From Candidatus Hermodarchaeota archaeon (GTDB lineage Archaea > Asgardarchaeota > Heimdallarchaeia > Hodarchaeales > Hodarchaeaceae): 32,000 nt of DNA. Below the pieces are notes generated by a model. It was given only the letters and a program-made list of their open reading frames with translations. It was not told the origin of the DNA and searched no databases. A program made the translations under genes and the position numbers. This document shows, piece after piece, positions 10,279-31,803 of the stretch; the stretch's first letter is position 1, and the number at the start of each line of letters is the position of its first letter. The stretch covers positions 168,526 through 200,525 of the forward strand of contig JBHLKY010000010.1 of NCBI GenBank assembly GCA_048886185.1, given 5' to 3'.

Positions 10279-13200
10279 TTGTTTGCCAGAAAGAACTCTT
10301 TTTTTGGGTGTAATCTTAATCTAGCAACACTTCATAGTGAAATAACGCAATTACAATCAAAATTAATTGCTGTATTTTTACTAGGTCTTTTTAGCTTCTC
10401 TATTTTCTCTCTTTTCTTTAATGATGTTGCCTTAGAAGAAAAAGAACTAAACTACCAAAATTTATTTTCTTTCAGTAATAGAAAAAAGTTACTAACTTCT
10501 CATATTCTGCCATCTGAAACATTATCAAATCCTGATAAACAATCCAATTCAAGCATGCGTCAAGATTATCTCATTGACATTGATAAAATGAAAAAAGTCC
10601 AAATAGAAAAGTTGGATAAGAATGAAAATCGAATTACTGATGATTTAGAGAAAAAAATAACAAAAAGATCTTGTAAAGGCAATCGAATCTCAGTAATAGT
10701 TTCTACAAAGACTAATGAGTTTCAAGACACAGTATTACTTTTTGAAAACTTCGGAGGGGTAGTCCAATACATTTGGGATCAACCTGAAAATACTGTCTAT
10801 GGTTTTAGCGGAGAGATAGATATTTCGAGGTTAAAAGCATTTTCTGAGCAAGTAAAATCAAGTATAGAATTAATAGAAGAAGATTTACCAGCCATAAGAA
10901 ATTCTGATGTAGCTACCCATCTTGCAATGATAAGAACACACGTATGGGATAATTTGAATTATACAGGCGATCCTAATATGGCAATAGCAGTTCTAGATAC
11001 TGGTATTGATGATTCACACTTAGCTTTTTCACCTGGATATGAAGATCAGAATTGGAGTAAAAAGATAGTTGGGTGGTATGATGCAACTGAAGATGGATCA
11101 ACGACACCAGAGGATTATGTTGGACATGGGTCTCATGTTTCTGGGATAGTTGCTGCAAATGAATATAATAATAGCTATGACAACGGAAGGATTGCTACTA
11201 CTTGGAGTTATAGTTACAATCCAGGAGGAATTGCTTCAGGTGCATTTACGTATGTTATTTGGGTAAATAGAACAGGTACAATAGATATAAGCTATGTTTG
11301 GCGGGGAACACTATCTGCAGAAGGTACAGAACTCAAATTATATGCTCCAAACGGCACATTGGTAGCAAATGACACCTCTGGTAACTCGAATATGACTTTA
11401 AGTCATACTGTCTCATCATCGGAAGATTTCGGTTATTGGGAAGTCGGGCTTGGCGTAAGTTGTGGAGTCAGTGGAGGAATGCTAGATTTAGCAGGTGTAA
11501 ATAAATATCCATATCCTGATCCTAAGGATGATCATAGCCGTTTTGCAGGTGTGGCACCAGATGTGAAGCTTGTGGGAGTTAAAATATTCGATCAGACTGG
11601 TTTTGGTACATCAGATGATGTAATCGAAGCATTTAACTGGATTAAAAGTAATAAAGCTACTTACCATATAGCTATTGCATCTGGATCCTTTGGTTTTTCT
11701 GAAACAGTTGTTTCTGTTGATTCTGCAGCAGCAGCTTTAGTGAATTCAGGAGTTACAGTAGTTCTTTCGGCAGGTAATGACGGCCAAGGAAAAAATTCAA
11801 TTTTCAGTCCAGGACAGGTTAATGGAGTAATTACTGTAGCAGCATTAGATGATTATGATAGAATAACAGCATATTCTTCAGAAGGCCCTGGAGAGATGTC
11901 AAATACTTCGAAACCTGACATCGTTGCTCCTGGAGGTGAAAGAACTCAAGGTGCTATACTTCAAGTTGATAGTAATGATGCAGATTCAAAAAATCATACT
12001 TGGAGCGATAAAATTTCAAATGATTTCACTAATATTCAAGGGACATCAATGGCTTGCCCATTTGTTTCTGGGTCATTAGCCTTATTAATACAAGCTATGG
12101 GAGGATATGATTATTGGAAGAACAGTTATGGTTCAGCGACTAATCCGTTTAAAGTAAAGCAATTGCTTCTCATGACTGGAAATGAAATATATCTAGATAA
12201 TAGAGGGAGAAAAGATGTTGTGGAGGGGTATGGAAGGCTGAATATTTATGCAGCCATTGAAGCAATCGAAAATACATATGAAATTGGGACAAAAGTAAGT
12301 GGTACATTATCCCAAGAAATTGGAAAACGTAAAGTTTGGGCACAAAATGTAACTTTAACTGCAGGGATAAACTATACATTGGCGTTAATCGTTCCTAATG
12401 GTGCAGATTTTGATCTATTTATATATGAACCAGATCCAAATCAATTTGGTGAGCCAATATTAGCTGCAAGATCAGCAAACTTTGAATTTGGAGCAGATGA
12501 ATATATTACTTACACTCCAAACACAAGTGGAATATATTACTTAGTGATAAAGACATCATTTACAAATAAGGGTTCAGGTACCTTCTACTTGACATCAACA
12601 TCAGGAAGTGGTTTTCCAGTTGCTTCCTTTGTGTCTCCAATTGAAAATGAGAAGCTAACAGGACAATATAGAATTCTGATTGATGCAGAAGATTCGGATC
12701 TAAGAGCAGTTTATTGTAAAATTGCAGATGATTCTTGGATAAATACTACTTTTACAGGAACATATTATGAGTATGAGTATAATACTACTGCTTTACCTGA
12801 CGGTAATATCTCCTTTGTAGCAAAAGTAGTGGATTCTCAAGGACATATAACATTTACTTCAATAAGTAATACTTATACAGATAATTTCAATCAACCAATA
12901 CTATTAGTTGATGATGATATAGGAGAGATTCATGAGAAATATTACGAGAGAACATTAAAAAGATTATCACTCTATGAAGGTATAGGGTTCGACTATTACT
13001 CCGTTCAAACTTCAGGAAGTCCATCAGCGAATAAATTGAAAGAATATCAGCTTGTTATTTGGTTCACTTCTAATGACTCCTCAACAACACTAACAACAAT
13101 TGATCAAAGTAACCTTCAGTCTTACCTTGATAATGGGGGATATTTATGGATTTCTGGGCAAGATATTGGTTATGACATTAATACAACATCATTCTATGGT

Positions 13201-14829
13201 AATTATCTCCATGCAGTTCATCAAGCACGTAGTGTGACAGATAATAGATACATTTCAGGAGTAAGTGGCGAAATTTTTGAAGGAAAAAGGTATTTTATAG
13301 GAGCTGGAGCAGGAAGTGGCCAATATGACTATCCGAGTGATATTGATGCGAATACTGGAGCAGCAGTAATATTGAACTATTATGATAATTCTAGCTATGG
13401 TGCTGCAATAAAATATAACGGAACACACAAAGTAATATATTGTGCATTCAATTGGGAGGCAATGGATGACGAAATTGACAGAATGGATAGTTTGAATAGA
13501 TCAATAAACTGGTTTGCTCTTGATGAAAGACCAACAAGTGTTTTAATTAGTAGTCCAACAAATGGAACGACAACTAATAGAAATCCAACTTTTTCGTGGA
13601 TTGGAATTGATGATTATGGAATAGAAAAGTATGCTATATTTCGAGAGGGAATCTACCTCACAACAACATCAGAAACAAGTATAACATTAAATGATCAACC
13701 AGAAGGATGGCATAGTTATAAAATTGTGGCTTTTGATGAGAAAAATCAAAGTAATACTTATAGACTAACCCTCTTTATAGACAGGACACCACCATTAGTT
13801 TGTATGGTTTCTCCCCTCAATATCACCTATTCATTATTATCTGTTCCGATTTATGCCACCAATCTAAGTACAGTTCACAAAGCATGGTATCGTTATATGA
13901 GCGGCTTTTGGTCAATAAACTATTCGATGATATATGATTCAAATAATGCTAGATGGGAAGCAGAAACACCTACATGGGGCGATGGAGGTTACTTAATACA
14001 AGTCTTTTTCAATGATAGTGTAGGAAATGAAGCTTTTAGGCAGGAATGGTTCAGTATTGATACAACTGGCCCAACGGTGACCATTATTAGTCCAAGTAAC
14101 ACAACATACAAAACTACTCTAATAATAATTCTTGCTACAAACTCCACAATCGTTCATAAGGCCTGGTACAGGTATCGAAGCCTTTCTTGGTCGTCCAATT
14201 ATTCTCTGAATTATAATCCTAGCGCGGGAAGATGGGAAAACCTAGGTATAACATTGATTGATGGCAATTACCGAATTCAGATTTATTTCAATGATAGTGT
14301 AGGGAATGAAGCTTTTAGCGAAGAATATTTCAGTGTAGATACCACTGCTCCTATCGTGATTCTTAATTCACCTAATAATACAACTTATATTCAAAATAGT
14401 GTCATGTTGGACTATTTTGTTTCTGATGGTGTTGTTACTATTTATCTTGATGGAATAGCCAATACAACAGCAATTTCCAGTGGATCGTCGCTCTCCAACC
14501 TATCTGTAGGGAGTCATAATATTACCATTATTGCTATAGATACTGTGGGTCATATTGCTAGAGCTTCCATTATATTAACAGTGGAAAGTTTTATTCCTCC
14601 TACAACTACTACAACAATTCCTATCACTATTAGTCCAACAACTCCTCCTGCAACCCAAACCCTACCGATTTCCAGTTTTACACCTTTCTCTTCTCTTACA
14701 CCTACTACTGAAACAGAATTTGCAGCTGAACGAGGTTCAGGGTTCTTATTAATAGAAGTTCTTATCGTAGTGGTCTTAATAGGCATTTCAATAAAGAAAT
14801 CGAGATTATGGAGTAAGAAAGACAGATAA
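10279..14829 (+). CDS. Large membrane-anchored subtilisin-like serine protease (peptidase S8)
   Basis: IAVLDTGID (Asp), GHGSHVSGI (His), SAGNDG (oxyanion Asn), QGTSMACP (Ser); N-terminal hydrophobic helix and propeptide; PPC/Ig-like domains; T/P/S linker, TM, basic tail. TTG start has AGGAG 8 nt upstream. Confidence 0.95.
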   Translation: MFARKNSFFGCNLNLATLHSEITQLQSKLIAVFLLGLFSFSIFSLFFNDVALEEKELNYQNLFSFSNRKKLLTSHILPSETLSNPDKQSNSSMRQDYLIDIDKMKKVQIEKLDKNENRITDDLEKKITKRSCKGNRISVIVSTKTNEFQDTVLLFENFGGVVQYIWDQPENTVYGFSGEIDISRLKAFSEQVKSSIELIEEDLPAIRNSDVATHLAMIRTHVWDNLNYTGDPNMAIAVLDTGIDDSHLAFSPGYEDQNWSKKIVGWYDATEDGSTTPEDYVGHGSHVSGIVAANEYNNSYDNGRIATTWSYSYNPGGIASGAFTYVIWVNRTGTIDISYVWRGTLSAEGTELKLYAPNGTLVANDTSGNSNMTLSHTVSSSEDFGYWEVGLGVSCGVSGGMLDLAGVNKYPYPDPKDDHSRFAGVAPDVKLVGVKIFDQTGFGTSDDVIEAFNWIKSNKATYHIAIASGSFGFSETVVSVDSAAAALVNSGVTVVLSAGNDGQGKNSIFSPGQVNGVITVAALDDYDRITAYSSEGPGEMSNTSKPDIVAPGGERTQGAILQVDSNDADSKNHTWSDKISNDFTNIQGTSMACPFVSGSLALLIQAMGGYDYWKNSYGSATNPFKVKQLLLMTGNEIYLDNRGRKDVVEGYGRLNIYAAIEAIENTYEIGTKVSGTLSQEIGKRKVWAQNVTLTAGINYTLALIVPNGADFDLFIYEPDPNQFGEPILAARSANFEFGADEYITYTPNTSGIYYLVIKTSFTNKGSGTFYLTSTSGSGFPVASFVSPIENEKLTGQYRILIDAEDSDLRAVYCKIADDSWINTTFTGTYYEYEYNTTALPDGNISFVAKVVDSQGHITFTSISNTYTDNFNQPILLVDDDIGEIHEKYYERTLKRLSLYEGIGFDYYSVQTSGSPSANKLKEYQLVIWFTSNDSSTTLTTIDQSNLQSYLDNGGYLWISGQDIGYDINTTSFYGNYLHAVHQARSVTDNRYISGVSGEIFEGKRYFIGAGAGSGQYDYPSDIDANTGAAVILNYYDNSSYGAAIKYNGTHKVIYCAFNWEAMDDEIDRMDSLNRSINWFALDERPTSVLISSPTNGTTTNRNPTFSWIGIDDYGIEKYAIFREGIYLTTTSETSITLNDQPEGWHSYKIVAFDEKNQSNTYRLTLFIDRTPPLVCMVSPLNITYSLLSVPIYATNLSTVHKAWYRYMSGFWSINYSMIYDSNNARWEAETPTWGDGGYLIQVFFNDSVGNEAFRQEWFSIDTTGPTVTIISPSNTTYKTTLIIILATNSTIVHKAWYRYRSLSWSSNYSLNYNPSAGRWENLGITLIDGNYRIQIYFNDSVGNEAFSEEYFSVDTTAPIVILNSPNNTTYIQNSVMLDYFVSDGVVTIYLDGIANTTAISSGSSLSNLSVGSHNITIIAIDTVGHIARASIILTVESFIPPTTTTTIPITISPTTPPATQTLPISSFTPFSSLTPTTETEFAAERGSGFLLIEVLIVVVLIGISIKKSRLWSKKDR
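13780..14337 (+). repeat. Tandem 279-nt (93-aa) Ig-like domain repeat within the S8 gene
   Basis: D(R/T)T(P/G)P starts at 13780 and 14059, with a third DTTAP at 14338; TTCAATGATAGTGTAGG(A/G)AATGAAGCTTTT recurs at 14008 and 14287. Confidence 0.9.
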
Positions 14830-19432: not shown

Positions 19433-21160
19433 TTATAGAAATCCCCCAAGAGTGAATGTATCTGCAATGATCCATGCGATGATTAAAGTATTAAAGAGAG
19501 CTCCTGATCCAGTGGAACGAGTTAATCTATAAAACCATTCTGTAAAAATTGAAGGAATTAAGATAACAGGAATAATACCCCATAAAAACTCTAGAATGAG
19601 TCCTAAAAATCCTGGTACAATTTTTTGGTTAAACAGGAATAATGGAGCATAGAGTATTATGAGGATAAATATAAAAGGGGCTATTTTTACGCCTACAATC
19701 TTGAAAAATGTTAATATTGACGATTTTATATCTTCTCCCTCTCGATTATGAAAATATTCATAGAAGAATAAACCATCAGCATAAAAATTGAATATTAAGA
19801 ATGGTACGAATATAAAAAAGATGAATAAACGTGAGATAGGTAATAAATCTCCAAATAGCGGAGTTAGAATCTGAAAATTTATCCTAAAGACTGTTTTTAT
19901 GGAAATACTAGTAAAATAAATTATAACGATTAAAAATGTTACAATTAGTATCTCTCGTCTGTTAAGCGAGATTTTAACTTTTTCTTTTATATTTGGGACA
20001 ATTTTAGTAAGTTTAGGAAGAAAATATCTAATCAATATCAGCCCTAACACTCCCCATATGAATAACCACCAGACAAGTGAAGTTCCAAATAGTAAGGGCG
20101 GGAAAGGAATGAAAAAACCAATCATCATCATAGGTAGAAATAGAACGGCCCCGAGACAGCTCCAAAGAAGCAATATCTTCCAGTTTTCATGAAACAATTC
20201 ATCCTTCTTTTTGAGGTCTCTTTGGGGAACATCAAAGAAAGCATTTAATATTACAGAAAAGCTACAAATAAATCCGATAAACGCAATAAAACCACCAATA
20301 ATCGCAAGGTCCCTTATAATAAAAAGAAAGTCTGAGGAAGATAGTTGAACATGAGTTGGAGGATTGAGAGTACGCCCCATCCATTGGATAATTTCAGAAA
20401 CAATTAGAGGATCGAATGTTTCTGCAAGATGTATAGTCGATGTTAAGACAAGCTTACGAGCAGTATTTGTAGAGAAACTGCCATACTGAACATTTGGCTC
20501 TACCATCCCATCAGTACTAAACACAGGGGCTAAAGTCTCTCTTATTGAAGGTATATCAAATAGAATATCTTGAGTACCTATAGCAATTAGGAGATTTTTT
20601 GGAAAAGTTGCATTAATTACCCCATAAGCCACATCCTCAACCATCTCTCCTAATCCCCCACCAATTAAAACTGTAGCACTGATATTACCATGACTGATAC
20701 TTGTAGCACGTACTGCCCCTGCTCCAAGACTGTGACCAGCAAGACCTATAGCTGAGCTATTCACGTAAGGGCGGGATTCTAAATATCGGACTGCTGCTAA
20801 AATTCCCAAAGTCGCATCATTAGTAGAGCCAAAAGATCCTCCTGAATTACCATGACCTATTTCATCAACTGCCAAAGATATAATCCCTCTACGACTGAGC
20901 TCCAAAGCAATTCCAGTTACATATTCCTTGGAGCTCCCAATTCCATGTGTTAGAATTACCGCGGGATAAGGAGTCATTGGAGAAACACTTTTTGGCTTAT
21001 ATATTATCCCACTAAGTCGAATTCCATTATGGGGTATTGAAACTGGTTCGACATCTACAGTCCCAAAATTTGAATTCAAGAAACCAGCAGTACCAACACC
21101 AATTAATGAGATAAGTAAGAAAAATATTGAAACTAACAATGCTTTTCGATTAAAGGGCAT
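19433..21160 (-). CDS. Alpha/beta hydrolase with a multi-TM C-terminal domain
   Basis: PAVILTHG, GHGNS, GHSLG nucleophile elbow, GTQD, HLAE; N-terminal signal/TM helix and about 7-8 C-terminal TM helices. Confidence 0.85.
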   Translation of the reverse strand: MPFNRKALLVSIFFLLISLIGVGTAGFLNSNFGTVDVEPVSIPHNGIRLSGIIYKPKSVSPMTPYPAVILTHGIGSSKEYVTGIALELSRRGIISLAVDEIGHGNSGGSFGSTNDATLGILAAVRYLESRPYVNSSAIGLAGHSLGAGAVRATSISHGNISATVLIGGGLGEMVEDVAYGVINATFPKNLLIAIGTQDILFDIPSIRETLAPVFSTDGMVEPNVQYGSFSTNTARKLVLTSTIHLAETFDPLIVSEIIQWMGRTLNPPTHVQLSSSDFLFIIRDLAIIGGFIAFIGFICSFSVILNAFFDVPQRDLKKKDELFHENWKILLLWSCLGAVLFLPMMMIGFFIPFPPLLFGTSLVWWLFIWGVLGLILIRYFLPKLTKIVPNIKEKVKISLNRREILIVTFLIVIIYFTSISIKTVFRINFQILTPLFGDLLPISRLFIFFIFVPFLIFNFYADGLFFYEYFHNREGEDIKSSILTFFKIVGVKIAPFIFILIILYAPLFLFNQKIVPGFLGLILEFLWGIIPVILIPSIFTEWFYRLTRSTGSGALFNTLIIAWIIADTFTLGGFL

Positions 21161-21466
21161 TGTAAAGACTCCTGATTCATGTATAAGTTATTGACATCAT
21201 TAGAAAATCATCTACGAATTATTTTGCATATCGATATAATTATTCTGGATTGTTTTATTTGCCTAAACAAATTTGTAATAGTTAATTTAAACCTAAATAA
21301 GTAATTTCTGTTAATGAGAAAAAAAATAACTTTTAACAACACAATATACCATTTAAGAATAAAAATATATAATCTAAAATTTTTCAATCTAACTGCACTT
21401 AACTGATTCTAGATGACATAAACAAAATTCATAATAATTAAGAGAAATTTTTTCTTTGGTAAATCA

Positions 21467-22693
21467 ATGATACATAAAGGTGCAAACTTCTTGAGTTTTA
21501 AGAGAATTAATACTCGTTCTAATGAACTTTCATCTTTAACTCTTGCTTTTAAAGCTCATAGAAGTCGATTTAAGAGATCATTTCAAATGATTCTTGATCG
21601 GAAGAGTCCTATAGAATTAAAACAATATCCAGATGAATTTCTCAATGCATTCAACAACATAAAATCTCCAGGAGTTGCATTAAAGCATTATTATAGGCTA
21701 ATTTTGTTGTTATTCCTAGCTAAGGATGACTTCACAGATCTGAATAAGAATGAAATAGATATAATATTCAAGGAGGTCGGAGTTGAATTATCCATCGATG
21801 TGTGGAAAAAATTAACAGGGCATTTAAGCAATGATTCTGATAATCTTCTGTACAAAATAAGGTTGGGGAAAGACACCAGATTATTATTTTCCTCTAATAA
21901 AGATTTAATTAAGATAATGACGAGATTATTAACAAATTCTCAATCTATTGAACCTCCTCATGACTATTCATTAGCCATATTTAGTAAATCAGCTCCTAAG
22001 GATAAAAATAACGTTGATTATTGTTTAGATTTTTCTAATTACTTCAAAGAAGGTTTACCATCTGAAGATCAATGGTTAATTATAGAGGACGAATTAACAA
22101 CTACAATTGAAACAATTTATGAAACTCACTTTGAAACAACACTTTTATTAAAAGAGTGTAAGCCTCATCCCTCTCTCTCTTTCATTCTAGGACATTCAGC
22201 TAATTATTTTGAGGGTTTGAAGTTATATATGTATCAGAATGGTCAATATTGGAAATACGAAAAGATAAATGAGAATATTCGTGCCTCTAATCACTGGAAT
22301 ATTTCTACAAAATATAGAAAACCTTTAAATGATGATGAAATTAATGTTTTAATAAGTGTAAGCGATCCAATTATACGATATGCCGAGAAGTATCTTCAAA
22401 AAGATAGAGAGGATACCAAATTCACTGTTCACTTTTCAATTAAACCTGAACCACAAGTAAACAGCATCACCGATCAAGATGATGCACTGAGAAAAGTTGA
22501 TGCTATTTACACGTATCTAACGCGACTTAAAACGAAGATCCCTTATATTAAGGTTCATTTATTTATTTGGGCCCAAGCTGCTTTCATTTCATTACTTGGA
22601 ATGAGACTTTCCTCTGTTGCCCTTGTTCAACTATATGAATTTGATCAAAAAACAGGAAATTTTGAACCTAGCCTATTACTAGATCGTTATTAA
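21467..22693 (+). CDS. SAVED-domain protein with an unassigned (winged-helix-like) N-terminal domain
   Basis: Residues ~166-406 show SAVED hallmarks: LDFSNYF, W, HPSLSFILG, YQNGQYW, VLISVS..I, VHLFIWAQAAFISLLG..L, VQLYEFDQKTGNFEPSLLL. Start uncertain (21467 or 21587). Confidence 0.82.
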   Translation: MIHKGANFLSFKRINTRSNELSSLTLAFKAHRSRFKRSFQMILDRKSPIELKQYPDEFLNAFNNIKSPGVALKHYYRLILLLFLAKDDFTDLNKNEIDIIFKEVGVELSIDVWKKLTGHLSNDSDNLLYKIRLGKDTRLLFSSNKDLIKIMTRLLTNSQSIEPPHDYSLAIFSKSAPKDKNNVDYCLDFSNYFKEGLPSEDQWLIIEDELTTTIETIYETHFETTLLLKECKPHPSLSFILGHSANYFEGLKLYMYQNGQYWKYEKINENIRASNHWNISTKYRKPLNDDEINVLISVSDPIIRYAEKYLQKDREDTKFTVHFSIKPEPQVNSITDQDDALRKVDAIYTYLTRLKTKIPYIKVHLFIWAQAAFISLLGMRLSSVALVQLYEFDQKTGNFEPSLLLDRY

Positions 22694-22847
22694 CAATAAC
22701 TATCAATCAAAATCAATACAATCTTTTTTAGTATTCATTCTAGGCATCTATTTTTTTTTACATGAACTATAACACATATGCCTTAGATAAGGAGATTCTC
22801 ATGATTAAATGCCTATAAATGACATAAAAAAGCTTTCTATTTTTTTT

Positions 22848-22980
22848 GCACTGTATCGCACTTTATTGAACTTGAAATATCTGCTTTATTTTTCTCTATA
22901 AAGAAATTTAACAAAATACTTCTTTGTTTAAAGTATAGAAAGGGTTTTTTCTATAGTACTAAAATTGCACATGTTCGCAC
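22848..22980 (+). promoter_or_regulatory. Pair of GCAC-N6-GCAC direct-repeat boxes (copy A)
   Basis: GCACTGTATCGCAC at 22848-22861 and GCACATGTTCGCAC at 22967-22980, 119 bp apart; both conserved in copy B. Confidence 0.65.
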
Positions 22981-23028
22981 CACTTATTTAAAACCATAAA
23001 ACTTAAATATATTTCTGAATAAGATATA

Positions 23029-23054
23029 TATTGACCTGGAATCATTGGTCAATA
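23029..23054. promoter_or_regulatory. TTGACC-N10-GGTCAA palindrome about 25 nt downstream of a TTAAATA box (copy A)
   Basis: TATTGACC/GGTCAATA arms; same core and spacing in copy B. Confidence 0.65.
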
Positions 23055-23080
23055 CCATTAGATTAATAAAGGTGATAAAC

Positions 23081-23146
23081 ATGGCAGATAAAGAGAAGAA
23101 AACAAAAACAAAAAAACCACGAGCTAAAAAAACAAAGAAGAAATAA
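23081..23146 (+). CDS. 21-aa Lys-rich micropeptide MADKEKKTKTKKPRAKKTKKK (copy A)
   Basis: AAGGTGA RBS 5 nt before the ATG; near-identical paralog at 31325-31387. Confidence 0.75.
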   Translation: MADKEKKTKTKKPRAKKTKKK

Positions 23147-23202
23147 TTTAGCTAAAGAATAGGTGATTTTTAAAATAATTTTTTTTTAAAAGGGTGATTG
23201 AT

Positions 23203-23322
23203 ATGAGAAAGGGACCAAAAAAGAAGCCAATCTATGAAGAAGAAGAAGAGGAAGAAGACTGGGAGGACGAGGACGACGATTGGGACGATGAAGACGAAGA
23301 TTGGGATGAAGAGGATAATTAA
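23203..23322 (+). CDS. 39-aa basic-head / acidic Trp-repeat micropeptide MRKGPKKKPIYEEEEEEEDWEDEDDDWDDEDEDWDEEDN (copy A)
   Basis: GGGTGA RBS 6 nt before the ATG; paralog at 31159-31272 with synonymous changes and only in-frame indels. Confidence 0.8.
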   Translation: MRKGPKKKPIYEEEEEEEDWEDEDDDWDDEDEDWDEEDN

Positions 23323-23341
23323 TCGTTTTAAAATTTTACTT

Positions 23342-23379
23342 GAGGTGAAATTTCCCCTTTATTAGGGGAACTCCACCTC
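23342..23379 (+). terminator. 3' hairpin of module copy A (terminator/stability element)
   Basis: GAGGTG/CACCTC outer stem and TTCCCCT/AGGGGAA inner stem with a TTATT loop, between convergent genes. Confidence 0.6.
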
Positions 23380-23403
23380 TATTTCTTAAATACATACACT
23401 AGC

Positions 23404-24246
23404 TTATAAATGGTCTTCAAGCCATTCCTTCAAATCTATTAAAACTTGGTTACGACCAGGTTGTGGTTCGTTATAAACTTCGTGATATAATCCTTCATAA
23501 TATTTTAGCTGTTTATCAGAAACCGTTATGTATGAAAACAGCTTTACCGGGTCAAGAGTGAGTTTGTCAAGTTTTCCGGATTGAACAAGGATAGGGAGTT
23601 GGATTTTTGATAATGATTCAGGAAGCTTTTTGCTGACCTTCAGATATTCTGCTCCAAGACGATAAGTTACAAATGTAAATACTAATGGATCGTTCTTGTA
23701 GGCTTCAACGACTTTAGGATCACTAGAAATATCGTCAGCTAAGTTAGTATTGACCTTTCCTTTCGGTCTAATTTTTGACAATAGTCCTGAGAGTAGGACT
23801 ACTAATGGATTAACCTTACTTGTGGCAGGATAGCCAAATCCTGAGAAAATAACTCCTTTTAGCTCCTTGGAATATTTAATTGCATACTCAATAGCAATTA
23901 TAACACCCATTGAGTGACCTAACAAGAAAAGCGGAACATTTACCTGTTCTTCCTTGATAAGATGAGTAAATTTCTTTGCATCCTGAGAATAGTCGTTAAA
24001 ACTATTCACATAACCCCTTATGCCCTCTGATTTTCCATGGCCCCGTAGATCATTACAGTAGACAATAAAATTATTTGGTACCAAGGAATTTACCACGTTC
24101 ATGTATCGAGAACTATGTTCTGCTAATCCATGCACAATCTGAAGAATAGCTTTCGGTTTTCCATCTGGTTCCCATACTTGATAATATAAATTGAGGCCAT
24201 CATCAGTTGTAAAATGATCGTCTCTATGTTTCATGATTCTTCCCAT
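23404..24246 (-). CDS. Lysophospholipase / monoacylglycerol lipase-like alpha/beta hydrolase
   Basis: IVHGLAEHSSRY, DLRGHGKS, GHSMG, GKLD, YHEVYNE. Confidence 0.92.
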   Translation of the reverse strand: MGRIMKHRDDHFTTDDGLNLYYQVWEPDGKPKAILQIVHGLAEHSSRYMNVVNSLVPNNFIVYCNDLRGHGKSEGIRGYVNSFNDYSQDAKKFTHLIKEEQVNVPLFLLGHSMGVIIAIEYAIKYSKELKGVIFSGFGYPATSKVNPLVVLLSGLLSKIRPKGKVNTNLADDISSDPKVVEAYKNDPLVFTFVTYRLGAEYLKVSKKLPESLSKIQLPILVQSGKLDKLTLDPVKLFSYITVSDKQLKYYEGLYHEVYNEPQPGRNQVLIDLKEWLEDHL

Positions 24247-30219: not shown

Positions 30220-30615
30220 ATGATTACTATATTGACTCAACAATTGAGATCATTAGAAAAAATCCCTGCAGACGAGTTTGATGATCATATCCATTCATTA
30301 AATATCCCCTACCAACAATTCTCTTTTATTGATAAAGACTCTCTTTCTGCATTTAATTCTAAGTACAAAGAAATTAAGGACTTATTATTCAAGTCACATG
30401 AAAAACACGAAACAATAGAAGATATAATTAGAAACTCTATTCATTTAGCCATCTTTGGGGCTTTTTCGATGGATTAGGAAGGTAATGTTAATATTCCACA
30501 CAAACTTGGATTCAAAGAATCCTCCAAGAGGGATACAGTTGCAGATTGTCTAATTTGCATGATTGTCCATATGAAAAATTTTTTGAACTATAAATTGCAA
30601 AAGTTCCGCAAGTAG
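30220..30615 (+). pseudogene. Unidentified gene fragment with an internal TAG
   Basis: 85-aa track ORF; the same frame stays open for 45 further codons after TAG 30475-30477. Confidence 0.35.
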
Positions 30616-30645: not shown

Positions 30646-31071
30646 ATGGAAGAATCTCGTTCTCATGCCGTTATTGTGTCTAATGTTCATCGTGAATTTC
30701 GAATTGGTGAGATTACTGTTCATGCGCTTCGGGGGACTAATATGGAAGTCTCTGAAGGCGAATTTGTTATCGTGCTAGATCCAAGTGGATCTGGAAAATC
30801 AACATTGTTAAATCAAATTGGAGGGATAGACTCCCCAACTAAATGTAGTGTGAAGATCCATGGGGAGAATATAACAGACTGGCGTGGAGGGAAACTATCT
30901 GAATATCGTCGTAATAAGGTTGGTTGGATTTTTCAATTTTTTAATCTTATTCCTTCTTTAAGAGCATGGGAAAATGTCGCACTCGCTTTAGAGTTCAAAG
31001 GTGATCGAAAAGAGATATATAAGTTTTATAAAAAGAGAGATATTATGTACAAAAAAAAGGCCCTTATGTAA
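30646..31071 (+). pseudogene. Truncated LolD/MacB-type ABC transporter ATPase
   Basis: Walker A altered to DPSGSGKST; Q-loop FQFFNLIP..AWENV present; similarity ends near 31010, before the signature motif and Walker B. Confidence 0.85.
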
Positions 31072-31078
31072 TTAATAG

Positions 31079-31128
31079 AGGTGATTTTCCCTTAGTTAAC
31101 CCTAGCAAAGGGAAAGGGAAAATCACCT
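31079..31128 (-). terminator. 3' hairpin of module copy B
   Basis: Perfect 15-bp stem AGGTGATTTTCCCTT (31079-31093) / AAGGGAAAATCACCT (31114-31128) with a 20-nt loop. Confidence 0.7.
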
Positions 31129-31158
31129 TTGAAATTATTTCAATTTAGCAAAAAGAAG

Positions 31159-31272
31159 CTAATTATCCTCGTCATCCCAATCGTCGTCGTCTTCCCAATC
31201 CTCTTCTTCTTCTTCTTCTTCTTCATAGATTGGTTTCTTAGGAGGAACTTTCTTCTTTGGAGCGTATTTCAT
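31159..31272 (-). CDS. 37-aa basic-head / acidic Trp-repeat micropeptide MKYAPKKKVPPKKPIYEEEEEEEEDWEDDDDWDDEDN (copy B)
   Basis: AAGGTGA RBS 5 nt before the ATG; paralog of 23203-23322. Confidence 0.8.
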   Translation of the reverse strand: MKYAPKKKVPPKKPIYEEEEEEEEDWEDDDDWDDEDN

Positions 31273-31324
31273 ATTTTTCACCTTTTTCTAAATGTTTTTG
31301 ATAAAGATTTTCCTTGTAATTAGA

Positions 31325-31387
31325 CTATTTCTTTGTTTTTTTAGCTCGTGGTTTTTTTGTTTTTGCTTTCTTCTCTTTTTCTGCCAT
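31325..31387 (-). CDS. 20-aa Lys-rich micropeptide MAEKEKKAKTKKPRAKKTKK (copy B)
   Basis: AAGGTGA RBS 5 nt before the ATG; paralog of 23081-23146. Confidence 0.75.
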   Translation of the reverse strand: MAEKEKKAKTKKPRAKKTKK

Positions 31388-31418
31388 GTTTTTCACCTTT
31401 ATTGTTCATTTTGTGGTG

Positions 31419-31440
31419 TTGACCAATGGTTTATGGTCAA
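31419..31440. promoter_or_regulatory. TTGACC-N10-GGTCAA palindrome (copy B)
   Basis: TTGACC 31419-31424 and GGTCAA 31435-31440; minus-strand TTTAAATA box just upstream. Confidence 0.65.
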
Positions 31441-31490
31441 TGTAATACAATTTCAGATGTTTATTTAAACCTTATGGATTTAAGTGAAGG

Positions 31491-31622
31491 GTGCGGACGT
31501 GTGCGATCATAACAAAACAAAATACGTTAATATAATACTTTAAATGAAAGATAAAGTTATTAAATGACTTTTCAGAGAAAAATCACACAGTCTTCATTGT
31601 TCAGTGAAGTGCGGTACTGTGC
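31491..31622 (-). promoter_or_regulatory. Pair of GCAC-N6-GCAC boxes (copy B)
   Basis: Minus strand GCACACGTCCGCAC (31491-31504) and GCACAGTACCGCAC (31609-31622), 118 bp apart. Confidence 0.65.
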
Positions 31623-31803
31623 AAAAAGTATAACAGATTATTTCTTAACCTATTTTGTCATATTTAAGCATTGAATTATGAAAATCTATTGATCTAAGGT
31701 ATAAGTATAATAATCCATTTAAAAAACATCATCAATCACAAAGTCTAGGATGGATTTAGTTTTCATTCATTACCTAGTTTGACCTAAAGATAACATTCAT
31801 TAG

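Follow-up and report, generated by a model that had tools for sequence, protein, structure and literature searches.

A winged-helix-SAVED protein as a candidate ligand-gated regulator of microprotein cassettes in an Asgard archaeon

The SAVED proteins characterized so far are, to our knowledge, all enzymes or pores: acting downstream of a CD-NTase or Cas10, they serve as effectors that kill the cell or arrest it. What does a SAVED protein do if its N-terminus resembles a DNA-binding domain instead? We considered this question for a gene from a Candidatus Hermodarchaeota archaeon (assembly GCA_048886185.1). The window that we analyzed is a stretch of 32,000 nucleotides (contig JBHLKY010000010.1, positions 168,526 to 200,525), and all positions below are counted from its first letter. 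A sequence-only reading had proposed that the product of this gene, which we will call the wH-SAVED protein, is an orphan and a candidate cyclic-oligonucleotide-responsive transcription factor. At the level that sequence analysis and structure prediction can reach, our results support a SAVED-type regulator. The gene and its parts are:

21360..21375, + strand: A/T-rich TATA-like box 5' of the wH-SAVED gene (upstream-region alignment)
21467..22693, + strand: wH-SAVED gene, an open reading frame of 408 codons from an ATG
21491, + strand: alternative TTG start of the gene, which yields 400 amino acids, as in most homologues
21497..21661, + strand: long helix (residues 11-43) and short helix (residues 56-65) before the winged helix (AF2)
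21680..21931, + strand: winged-helix core (AF2, Foldseek against the PDB, VIA-align, ESM Atlas)
21926..22684, + strand: complete SAVED domain, residues 154-406 (Pfam, NCBIfam, PADLOC, PDB profile search, Foldseek)
22751..22759, + strand: run of nine T's 3' of the stop codon (sequence)

In most homologues, the start codon is 8 codons downstream of the ATG in the window. The TATA-like box is kept among the loci of close homologues and is probably a promoter element of the wH-SAVED gene. The run of T's might be an archaeal terminator, judging from its sequence. When we searched positions 21100-23500 against Rfam, nothing was above the threshold, and the only sub-threshold match was to a snoRNA, inside the open reading frame.

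The C-terminal part of the protein is a SAVED domain, as the sequence-only reading had it: it matches both SAVED profiles and SAVED structures. Residues 154-406 align to positions 8-260 (of 261) of NCBIfam NF033611 (E = 1.7e-27, 96.6 bits versus a cut-off of 33), and residues 234-403 match Pfam PF18145 (E = 7.5e-18, 65.4 bits versus a cut-off of 26.2). PADLOC's models for SAVED effectors match the protein as well, and they align only from about residue 154 on. In a PDB profile search, the wH-SAVED protein matched Cap4 (6vm5/6vm6). An AF2 model of the full-length protein, built from 12 sequences, has a pLDDT of about 52-82 per 10-residue block in the SAVED part (mostly 64-80), and both the model and its Foldseek matches have the SAVED fold, with two fused CARF-like lobes. 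The best structural match for this model was Cap4 (7yib/6vm6; E = 2e-11, probability 1.0); Cap5, CalpL, SAVED-CHAT, and a viral SAVED ring nuclease (9r8s) ranked behind it. The domain is acidic (pI 5.6), and it may bind a cyclic oligonucleotide.

The N-terminal domain was left unmodeled in the full-length prediction (pLDDT below 50), but when residues 9-165 were modeled alone, from 13 sequences, AF2 gave a winged-helix topology with a pLDDT of 87.7 and a pTM of 0.83. (Protein numbering is the model's numbering plus 8.) The elements are H1 (residues 72-87), a short strand, H2 (94-103), H3 (110-117), a hairpin (128-133 and 136-141), and another helix (145-155). This corresponds to the order H1-S1-H2-H3-S2-wing-S3, which also appears in matches from three structure libraries, and it bears out the sequence-only reading of residues 70-156 or so as three helices and a beta-hairpin. 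The helices at residues 11-43 and 56-65, which precede the winged helix in the model, could be a dimerization or linker element.

When we compared the N-terminal domain to the PDB with Foldseek, nearly all of the matches were winged-helix DNA-binding proteins (probability at most 0.96, E about 0.1). These included STIV F93, several members of the ArsR family (SqrR, BigR, SmtB, CzrA, and HlyU), LmrR (a PadR protein), RTP, and MarR proteins. VIA-align gave Z scores of 5-6.5 for the winged-helix domain of ORC2, which was the top match, and for PagR, PadR, ArsR, and SmtB. A search of structures in the ESM Atlas led to regulators of the ArsR, Fur, BlaI, and WYL types. In these three structure searches, no catalytic domain or nuclease aligned to the N-terminal domain; the nuclease entries in the VIA-align list are FAN1 and SdaI, at ranks 23 and 50 (Z = 4.6-4.9). 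So, the absence of a catalytic effector from the N-terminus, which had been noted from motifs, extends to the predicted fold. Given the middling structural scores, we describe the domain as a predicted winged helix by fold, and we do not assign it to a family.

Sequence comparisons did not link this domain to any known family. Three N-terminal fragments (from residues 1-165) and 13 aligned domains had no significant match in Pfam, and a PDB profile search with the domain had no significant match either. We treated two weak Pfam hints, Myb_DNA-binding (E = 0.0018, from one distant member) and ELL (E = 0.05), as noise. Using hhalign, we found no relationship between the N-terminal domain and an ArsR-like protein from the source genome (probability 0.6%) or two neighboring proteins of an uncharacterized kind. 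Among 1.84 billion representative proteins, the domain occurs in just three clusters, all of them SAVED fusions of 400 amino acids, which indicates that it is lineage-specific and is never found apart from SAVED.

Would this domain bind DNA? It is basic (pI 9.7, charge +8), and it has invariant positions in H3 and in the wing. In H3, the putative recognition helix, W113, K114, K115, and T117 are invariant, even in homologues that are just 39-41% identical. In the wing, G134 is invariant in all homologues, and K135, D136, and R138 are invariant among the 12 closer ones. Winged helices also mediate protein-protein contacts. From the predicted fold and these residues, we infer that the winged helix of the wH-SAVED protein binds DNA.

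The gene seems to be a working one. We found about 15 homologues in protein databases, each of about 400 amino acids and all from Asgard metagenome-assembled genomes (labeled as Hodarchaeota, Promethearchaeota, Heimdallarchaeota, or Thorarchaeota), and these labels confirm that the window is of Asgard origin. Twelve of these are 62-84% identical to the wH-SAVED protein, and two more are 39-41% identical. Both domains are equally conserved, and there are no frameshifts, which argues for a functional gene; by these sequence comparisons, the entire protein is under strong purifying selection. The gene's distribution is patchy: it is present in 6 of the 22 genomes of the genus. (In one of these six, the gene is truncated by the end of a contig; the other five have the complete gene.) The source genome (a 4.84 Mb assembly, 96% complete) has just one SAVED gene.

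Next to the gene, about 700 nt on its 3' side are conserved across loci. We will refer to this region as the cassette. A second, paralogous cassette lies near the end of the window, without an adjacent SAVED gene. The cassettes contain:

22848..22871, + strand: site A, GCAC-N6-GCAC-N6-GAAC, three tandem repeats with a 10-bp period (cassette alignment)
22967..22980, + strand: site B, GCAC-N6-GCAC, which follows site A by 119 nt and lies 21 nt ahead of the TATA box
23002..23011, + strand: TATA-like box, TTTAAATA in most loci (conserved block)
23031..23052, + strand: palindrome TTGACC-N10-GGTCAA, near the expected transcription start, with arms that co-vary between loci
23082..23147, + strand: sORF1, a conserved open reading frame of 21 amino acids, lysine-rich, net charge about +9.5, with GGTGA in front
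23203..23322, + strand: sORF2, a conserved open reading frame of 39 amino acids, net charge about -19.5, with GGTGA in front
23342..23379, + strand: G+C-rich inverted repeat (hairpin), terminator-like, that closes the cassette (sequence and cross-locus comparison)
31078..31700, - strand: the second cassette, 71% identical over 452 nt
31599-31622, - strand: site A' of the second cassette
31491-31504, - strand: site B' of the second cassette
31419-31440, - strand: palindrome of the second cassette
31325-31387, - strand: sORF1'
31159-31272, - strand: sORF2'
31078-31128, - strand: hairpin of the second cassette

Judging from its sequence, the box at 23002..23011 is probably the TATA element of the cassette. 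The product of sORF2 would be basic at its N-terminus, and the poly-Glu/Asp tail behind it would carry Asp-Trp motifs. The lengths, starts, stops, and motifs of the two small open reading frames (KKPRAK in sORF1; KKPIYEEE...DW) are maintained across loci, and they show synonymous changes, which argues that both are translated. Together, the gene and its cassette span only about 2.1 kb.

The linkage between the gene and the cassette is strict. At all nine wH-SAVED loci, the gene is followed by the same cassette architecture, and the flanking protein genes are different at every locus. The description of the gene as an orphan is therefore half right: no protein-coding partner is shared among the nine loci, but the conserved cassette is always present downstream. 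At 8 of the 9 loci, including that of a 40% identical homologue (P0016), we found both of the exact GCAC-N6-GCAC double sites, 109-119 nt apart. At the remaining locus (P0017), the sites are GAAC/GCAC variants, phased at 10 bp like the others and spaced 109 nt apart. When we aligned 12 distinct cassettes, full invariance 5' of sORF1 was limited to the GCAC half-sites and to bases within the TATA box. Of the 12, 11 also keep GAAC as the third repeat of site A, and the spacers between repeats vary. This comparison of synteny across Asgard genomes yields a candidate target for the regulator: a conserved promoter with phased direct repeats, in front of two micro-ORFs.

GCAC-N6-GCAC occurs four times in the window, as compared to 0.10 times expected. 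In the 4.84-Mb source genome, the triple repeat occurs five times, with two of these at the cassettes; the micro-ORF peptides are confined to the two cassettes. When we scanned 400 genomes of the phylum for the double site, the pattern matched the five genomes of the genus with a complete wH-SAVED gene, and it also matched three genomes with higher G+C content, but for the family that holds two of those three, a reversed control pattern has matches too.

Our favored explanation, which we consider somewhat probable, is that wH-SAVED is a one-component, ligand-gated transcription factor that controls the microprotein cassettes, as an analogue of Csa3 with a SAVED sensor. The C-terminal SAVED domain would sense a nucleotide-derived signal, most likely a cyclic oligonucleotide or an oligonucleotide with a 2',3'-cyclic phosphate. 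Binding of the ligand would lead to head-to-tail self-association, as in other SAVED proteins, and this would align the N-terminal winged helices in one orientation. The aligned winged helices could then occupy the tandem G(C/A)AC repeats, which are one helical turn apart and upstream of the TATA box, at the adjacent cassette and also at the second copy 8 kb away. Occupancy would act as a switch on the cassette's transcription. The payload of the module would be its two microproteins, one a polycationic 21-mer and the other a basic/acidic 39-mer. Archaeal activators usually bind upstream of the TATA box. Because the repeats are in this position, activation would be favored.

The geometry of the repeats could fit this explanation in two ways. 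The winged helices of OmpR and PhoB bind direct repeats with a period of 10-11 bp in a head-to-tail arrangement, and by analogy, repeats that lie upstream of the TATA box and face the same side of the DNA may fit head-to-tail arrays of winged helices. The same geometry may also fit a ligand-bridged, head-to-tail assembly of SAVED domains; according to their entry titles, the Foldseek matches include filament structures of CalpL and SAVED-CHAT. Separately, we considered autoregulation through the same repeats, and we rejected it because the region 5' of the wH-SAVED gene does not contain GCAC-N6-GCAC.

Alternatively, the operator could be the palindrome and not the repeats. In that case, wH-SAVED would be a transcription factor that sits on the palindrome, at the transcription start, and represses the cassette, and a different host factor would read the G(C/A)AC repeats. 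The palindrome is found just twice in the source genome, both times at the cassettes (0.16 occurrences expected), and it sits where archaeal repressors act. Also, palindromes are the usual targets of the symmetric dimers that winged-helix proteins of the MarR, ArsR, and PadR types form, and the long N-terminal helix in the AF2 model is of a kind that is used in symmetric dimerization. However, the arms of the palindrome differ between loci (TTGACC/GGTCAA, TTGGCT/AGCCAA, TGGCC/GGCCA, or GATTGTC/GACAATC), while the recognition helix is invariant. As far as the sequences go, the co-variation of the arms fits an operator that co-evolves with its reader, but a hairpin formed by the 5' end of the RNA would account for it as well. 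Since the recognition helix and the repeats are both invariant and the palindrome is variable, we think that the G(C/A)AC repeats are the more likely target, and that repression through the palindrome is unlikely.

If wH-SAVED responds to a nucleotide signal, where does the signal come from? Our Pfam scans of the window's larger open reading frames found no CD-NTase, Cas10, or other defense gene, in agreement with what had been read from the sequence. (These open reading frames encode hydrolases, MscL, an AsnC-type regulator, VIT1, a GH5 cellulase, an S8 protease, and so on.) We then broadened the search to genomes. Using profiles, we found no SMODS CD-NTase (by the cut-off), Cas10 palm2, GGDEF, DAC, mCpol, RAMP, or Cas1 in the source genome, and so the genome-wide check for CD-NTase, Cas10, and DAC that the sequence-only reading called for came back empty. 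A DncV-like model had no match in the source genome, but the control search was likewise silent. In the five other genomes that carry the gene, there were no SMODS matches above the cut-off and no Cas10, and RAMP had a single match, in one of the five (G018). mCpol was absent from all 22 genomes of the genus.

The source genome does encode six generic Pol-beta nucleotidyltransferases, and we profiled two of them across the genus. We rejected both as sources of the signal: one is a core gene (21 of 22 genomes), with a distribution unlike that of wH-SAVED, and the other is present in 11 of 22 genomes and is missing from two of the wH-SAVED carriers. Some 34 kb upstream lies a JAB-E1-E2-E2 operon, which we considered as a partner of the kind found in type II CBASS. 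We rejected this link too, since 13 of the 22 genomes have the operon but two carriers lack it. As we did not find a known synthase for a SAVED ligand in the source genome, the sensor might be idle.

This raises another alternative, that wH-SAVED is an effector, left over or rewired, from a CBASS or type III system that has been lost. In that case, it would be non-functional or would respond only to an invader's signal, and its winged helix would be an adaptor that recruits another protein. A leftover could account for the lack of a recognizable cyclase, the presence of the gene in a minority of the genus, its variable genomic context, and the similarity of its SAVED domain to that of Cap4. 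On the other hand, both domains are conserved to the same extent in the 12 closer homologues and in the two distant ones, with no frameshifts, and no locus has a conserved protein partner for an adaptor to recruit. We consider this explanation quite improbable.

The least likely of the alternatives, to our minds, is that wH-SAVED is a signal sink or a ring nuclease (with cyclic oligonucleotides bound or cleaved, as by the CARF-wHTH protein Crn1 or the viral SAVED ring nuclease), with a structural winged helix and the cassette as an unrelated neighbor: CARF-wHTH ring nucleases do exist, 9r8s is among the structural matches, and without a cyclase there is no pathway to relay, but a cell that apparently cannot produce the signal would have no obvious use for degrading it, we found no relatives of wH-SAVED in our search of viral contigs, and neither the strict co-inheritance with a phased-repeat promoter nor the invariant basic recognition helix would be explained.

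If wH-SAVED is a ligand-gated regulator, then its SAVED sensor might work outside of CBASS and CRISPR altogether. The signal might come from an unrecognized host enzyme, from RNA damage, or from an invading virus, and the output would be transcription of the microprotein pair rather than cell killing. (By a signal of RNA damage, we mean linear oligoadenylates with a cyclic phosphate.) If so, the CARF/SAVED superfamily would have gained a new output logic, in the form of a compact and portable module of sensor, promoter, and payload. We view this broader scenario as a tentative possibility.

How does wH-SAVED compare to known systems? Its closest functional counterpart may be Csa3, a CARF-wHTH protein that is the cA4-responsive transcription factor of type I-A and type III CRISPR loci. 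Both proteins fuse a sensor from the CARF/SAVED superfamily to a winged helix, and Csa3 presumably converts a cyclic-oligoadenylate signal into a transcriptional response. In a 2022 review, Csa3 was the only characterized cOA-responsive regulator (PMC9704534). There are several differences. The sensor of Csa3 is a dimerizing CARF domain, while wH-SAVED has a SAVED domain, which is a fused pseudo-dimer; the order of the domains is CARF-wHTH in Csa3 and is reversed in wH-SAVED; Csa3 is linked to CRISPR, while we did not find Cas10, RAMP, or Cas1 in the source genome; and Csa3 targets cas genes, while the candidate target of wH-SAVED is direct repeats and a micro-ORF cassette. So, wH-SAVED is an analogue of Csa3 and not a member of its family.

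By both sequence profile and fold, the most similar SAVED domain is that of Cap4, and the two proteins share a C-terminal HLF..A..F...LG motif. However, Cap4 has a DUF4297 PD-(D/E)xK nuclease where wH-SAVED has a winged-helix domain of about 150 amino acids, and for wH-SAVED, there is no identifiable CD-NTase nearby or in the source genome. Also, against the NCBIfam equivalog for Cap4, wH-SAVED scores just 18.8 bits (the cut-off is 160). wH-SAVED is not Cap4, and it is not part of any recognizable CBASS or type III system.

Two other comparisons bear on the mechanism. In OmpR and PhoB, association of the signal domains leads to head-to-tail oligomers on tandem repeats with a period of about 10-11 bp, which is the model that we propose for wH-SAVED. 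There is no sequence relationship, and OmpR and PhoB combine a phospho-receiver with the bacterial transcription machinery, while wH-SAVED would combine SAVED with the archaeal machinery. TIR-SAVED, CalpL (Lon-SAVED), and SAVED-CHAT share the SAVED fold, and by analogy, we would expect the ligand-bridged head-to-tail assembly in wH-SAVED too. Their outputs are enzymatic (an NADase or proteases), while wH-SAVED has a non-catalytic domain of a DNA-binding type. In a literature search, which had incomplete coverage, we did not find a description of a SAVED-HTH fusion or of SAVED proteins in Asgard archaea.

If our favored explanation is correct, then a SAVED sensor has been recruited for gene regulation, as the CARF domain was in Csa3. 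With a candidate operator known to single-base precision and a module of just 2.1 kb or so, this explanation can be tested directly in vitro, and if it holds, the module would be a candidate for a ligand-inducible switch. The two conserved microproteins come from the archaeal lineage that is closest to eukaryotes. More broadly, a sensor that comes with a promoter and payload of its own, in genomes where we did not find the known cyclases, raises the question of which nucleotide signal is used in these archaea.

We examined the genes around the SAVED gene and its cassettes. About 11-15 kb before the start of the window lies an operon, and two further genes lie inside the window or just past its end:

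L046:1932-5016 (G000:C10:153931-157015), minus strand: operon for a JAB-like protein, ThiF/E1 and two E2-like proteins
window 10279-14829, plus strand: S8 subtilase of 1516 aa with several bacterial Ig-like domains
L032:3113-3982 (G000:C10:202112-202981), plus strand: RING-finger (Prok-RING_1 / zf-RING_2) and zinc-ribbon protein of 289 aa, ~2 kb past the window end

No CD-NTase adjoins the operon at L046. The operon was found in 13 of the 22 genomes of the genus, and its distribution across these 22 genomes does not follow that of the SAVED gene. The SAVED-gene loci examined show a single defence-like neighbour. It belongs to the locus of P0016, a distant homologue, and sits 2.4 kb 3' of the SAVED gene there:

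L006:5761-6402, plus strand: HEPN_RiboL-PSP gene

The acidic part of sORF2 has weak DNA matches in many genomes, and the reason is the tail of a 301-aa ORF outside the window. This tail is acidic, carries Asp-Trp motifs and much resembles sORF2:

G000:C9, around 117957, plus strand: ORF of 301 aa, whose C-terminus reads like PCNA

The cassette is present in duplicate in two carrier genomes, G015 (locus L036) and G014 (L035/L043). In G015, both copies are in tandem, directly 3' of the SAVED gene. The polylysine ORF of the second copy has diverged, and with our ORF filter, the acidic ORF was not found in that copy.

G015:C1:425630-426814, minus strand: duplicated cassette locus L036

An ORF near the window's second, inverted cassette has a counterpart in G018, another genome of the genus:

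window 30220-30477, plus strand: 85-aa ORF near the second cassette
G018:C39:236689-236946: its counterpart (79% identical)

In G018 the counterpart is ~800 nt 3' of the cassette that is linked to the SAVED gene, and its orientation relative to the cassette is opposite to that in the window. The comparison points to an inversion between the two inverted cassettes.

Beside the second cassette, next to its hairpin at 31078, lies:

window 30646-31071, plus strand: ABC-transporter ATPase ORF of only 141 aa

Its Pfam match ends at position 96 of the 137 in the profile, and its DNA similarity to paralogous ABC genes (for example 79% for G000:C12:133290-133631) stops near window position 31015. It looks like an ABC gene that was truncated at a rearrangement junction, which hints that the cassette moves or recombines.
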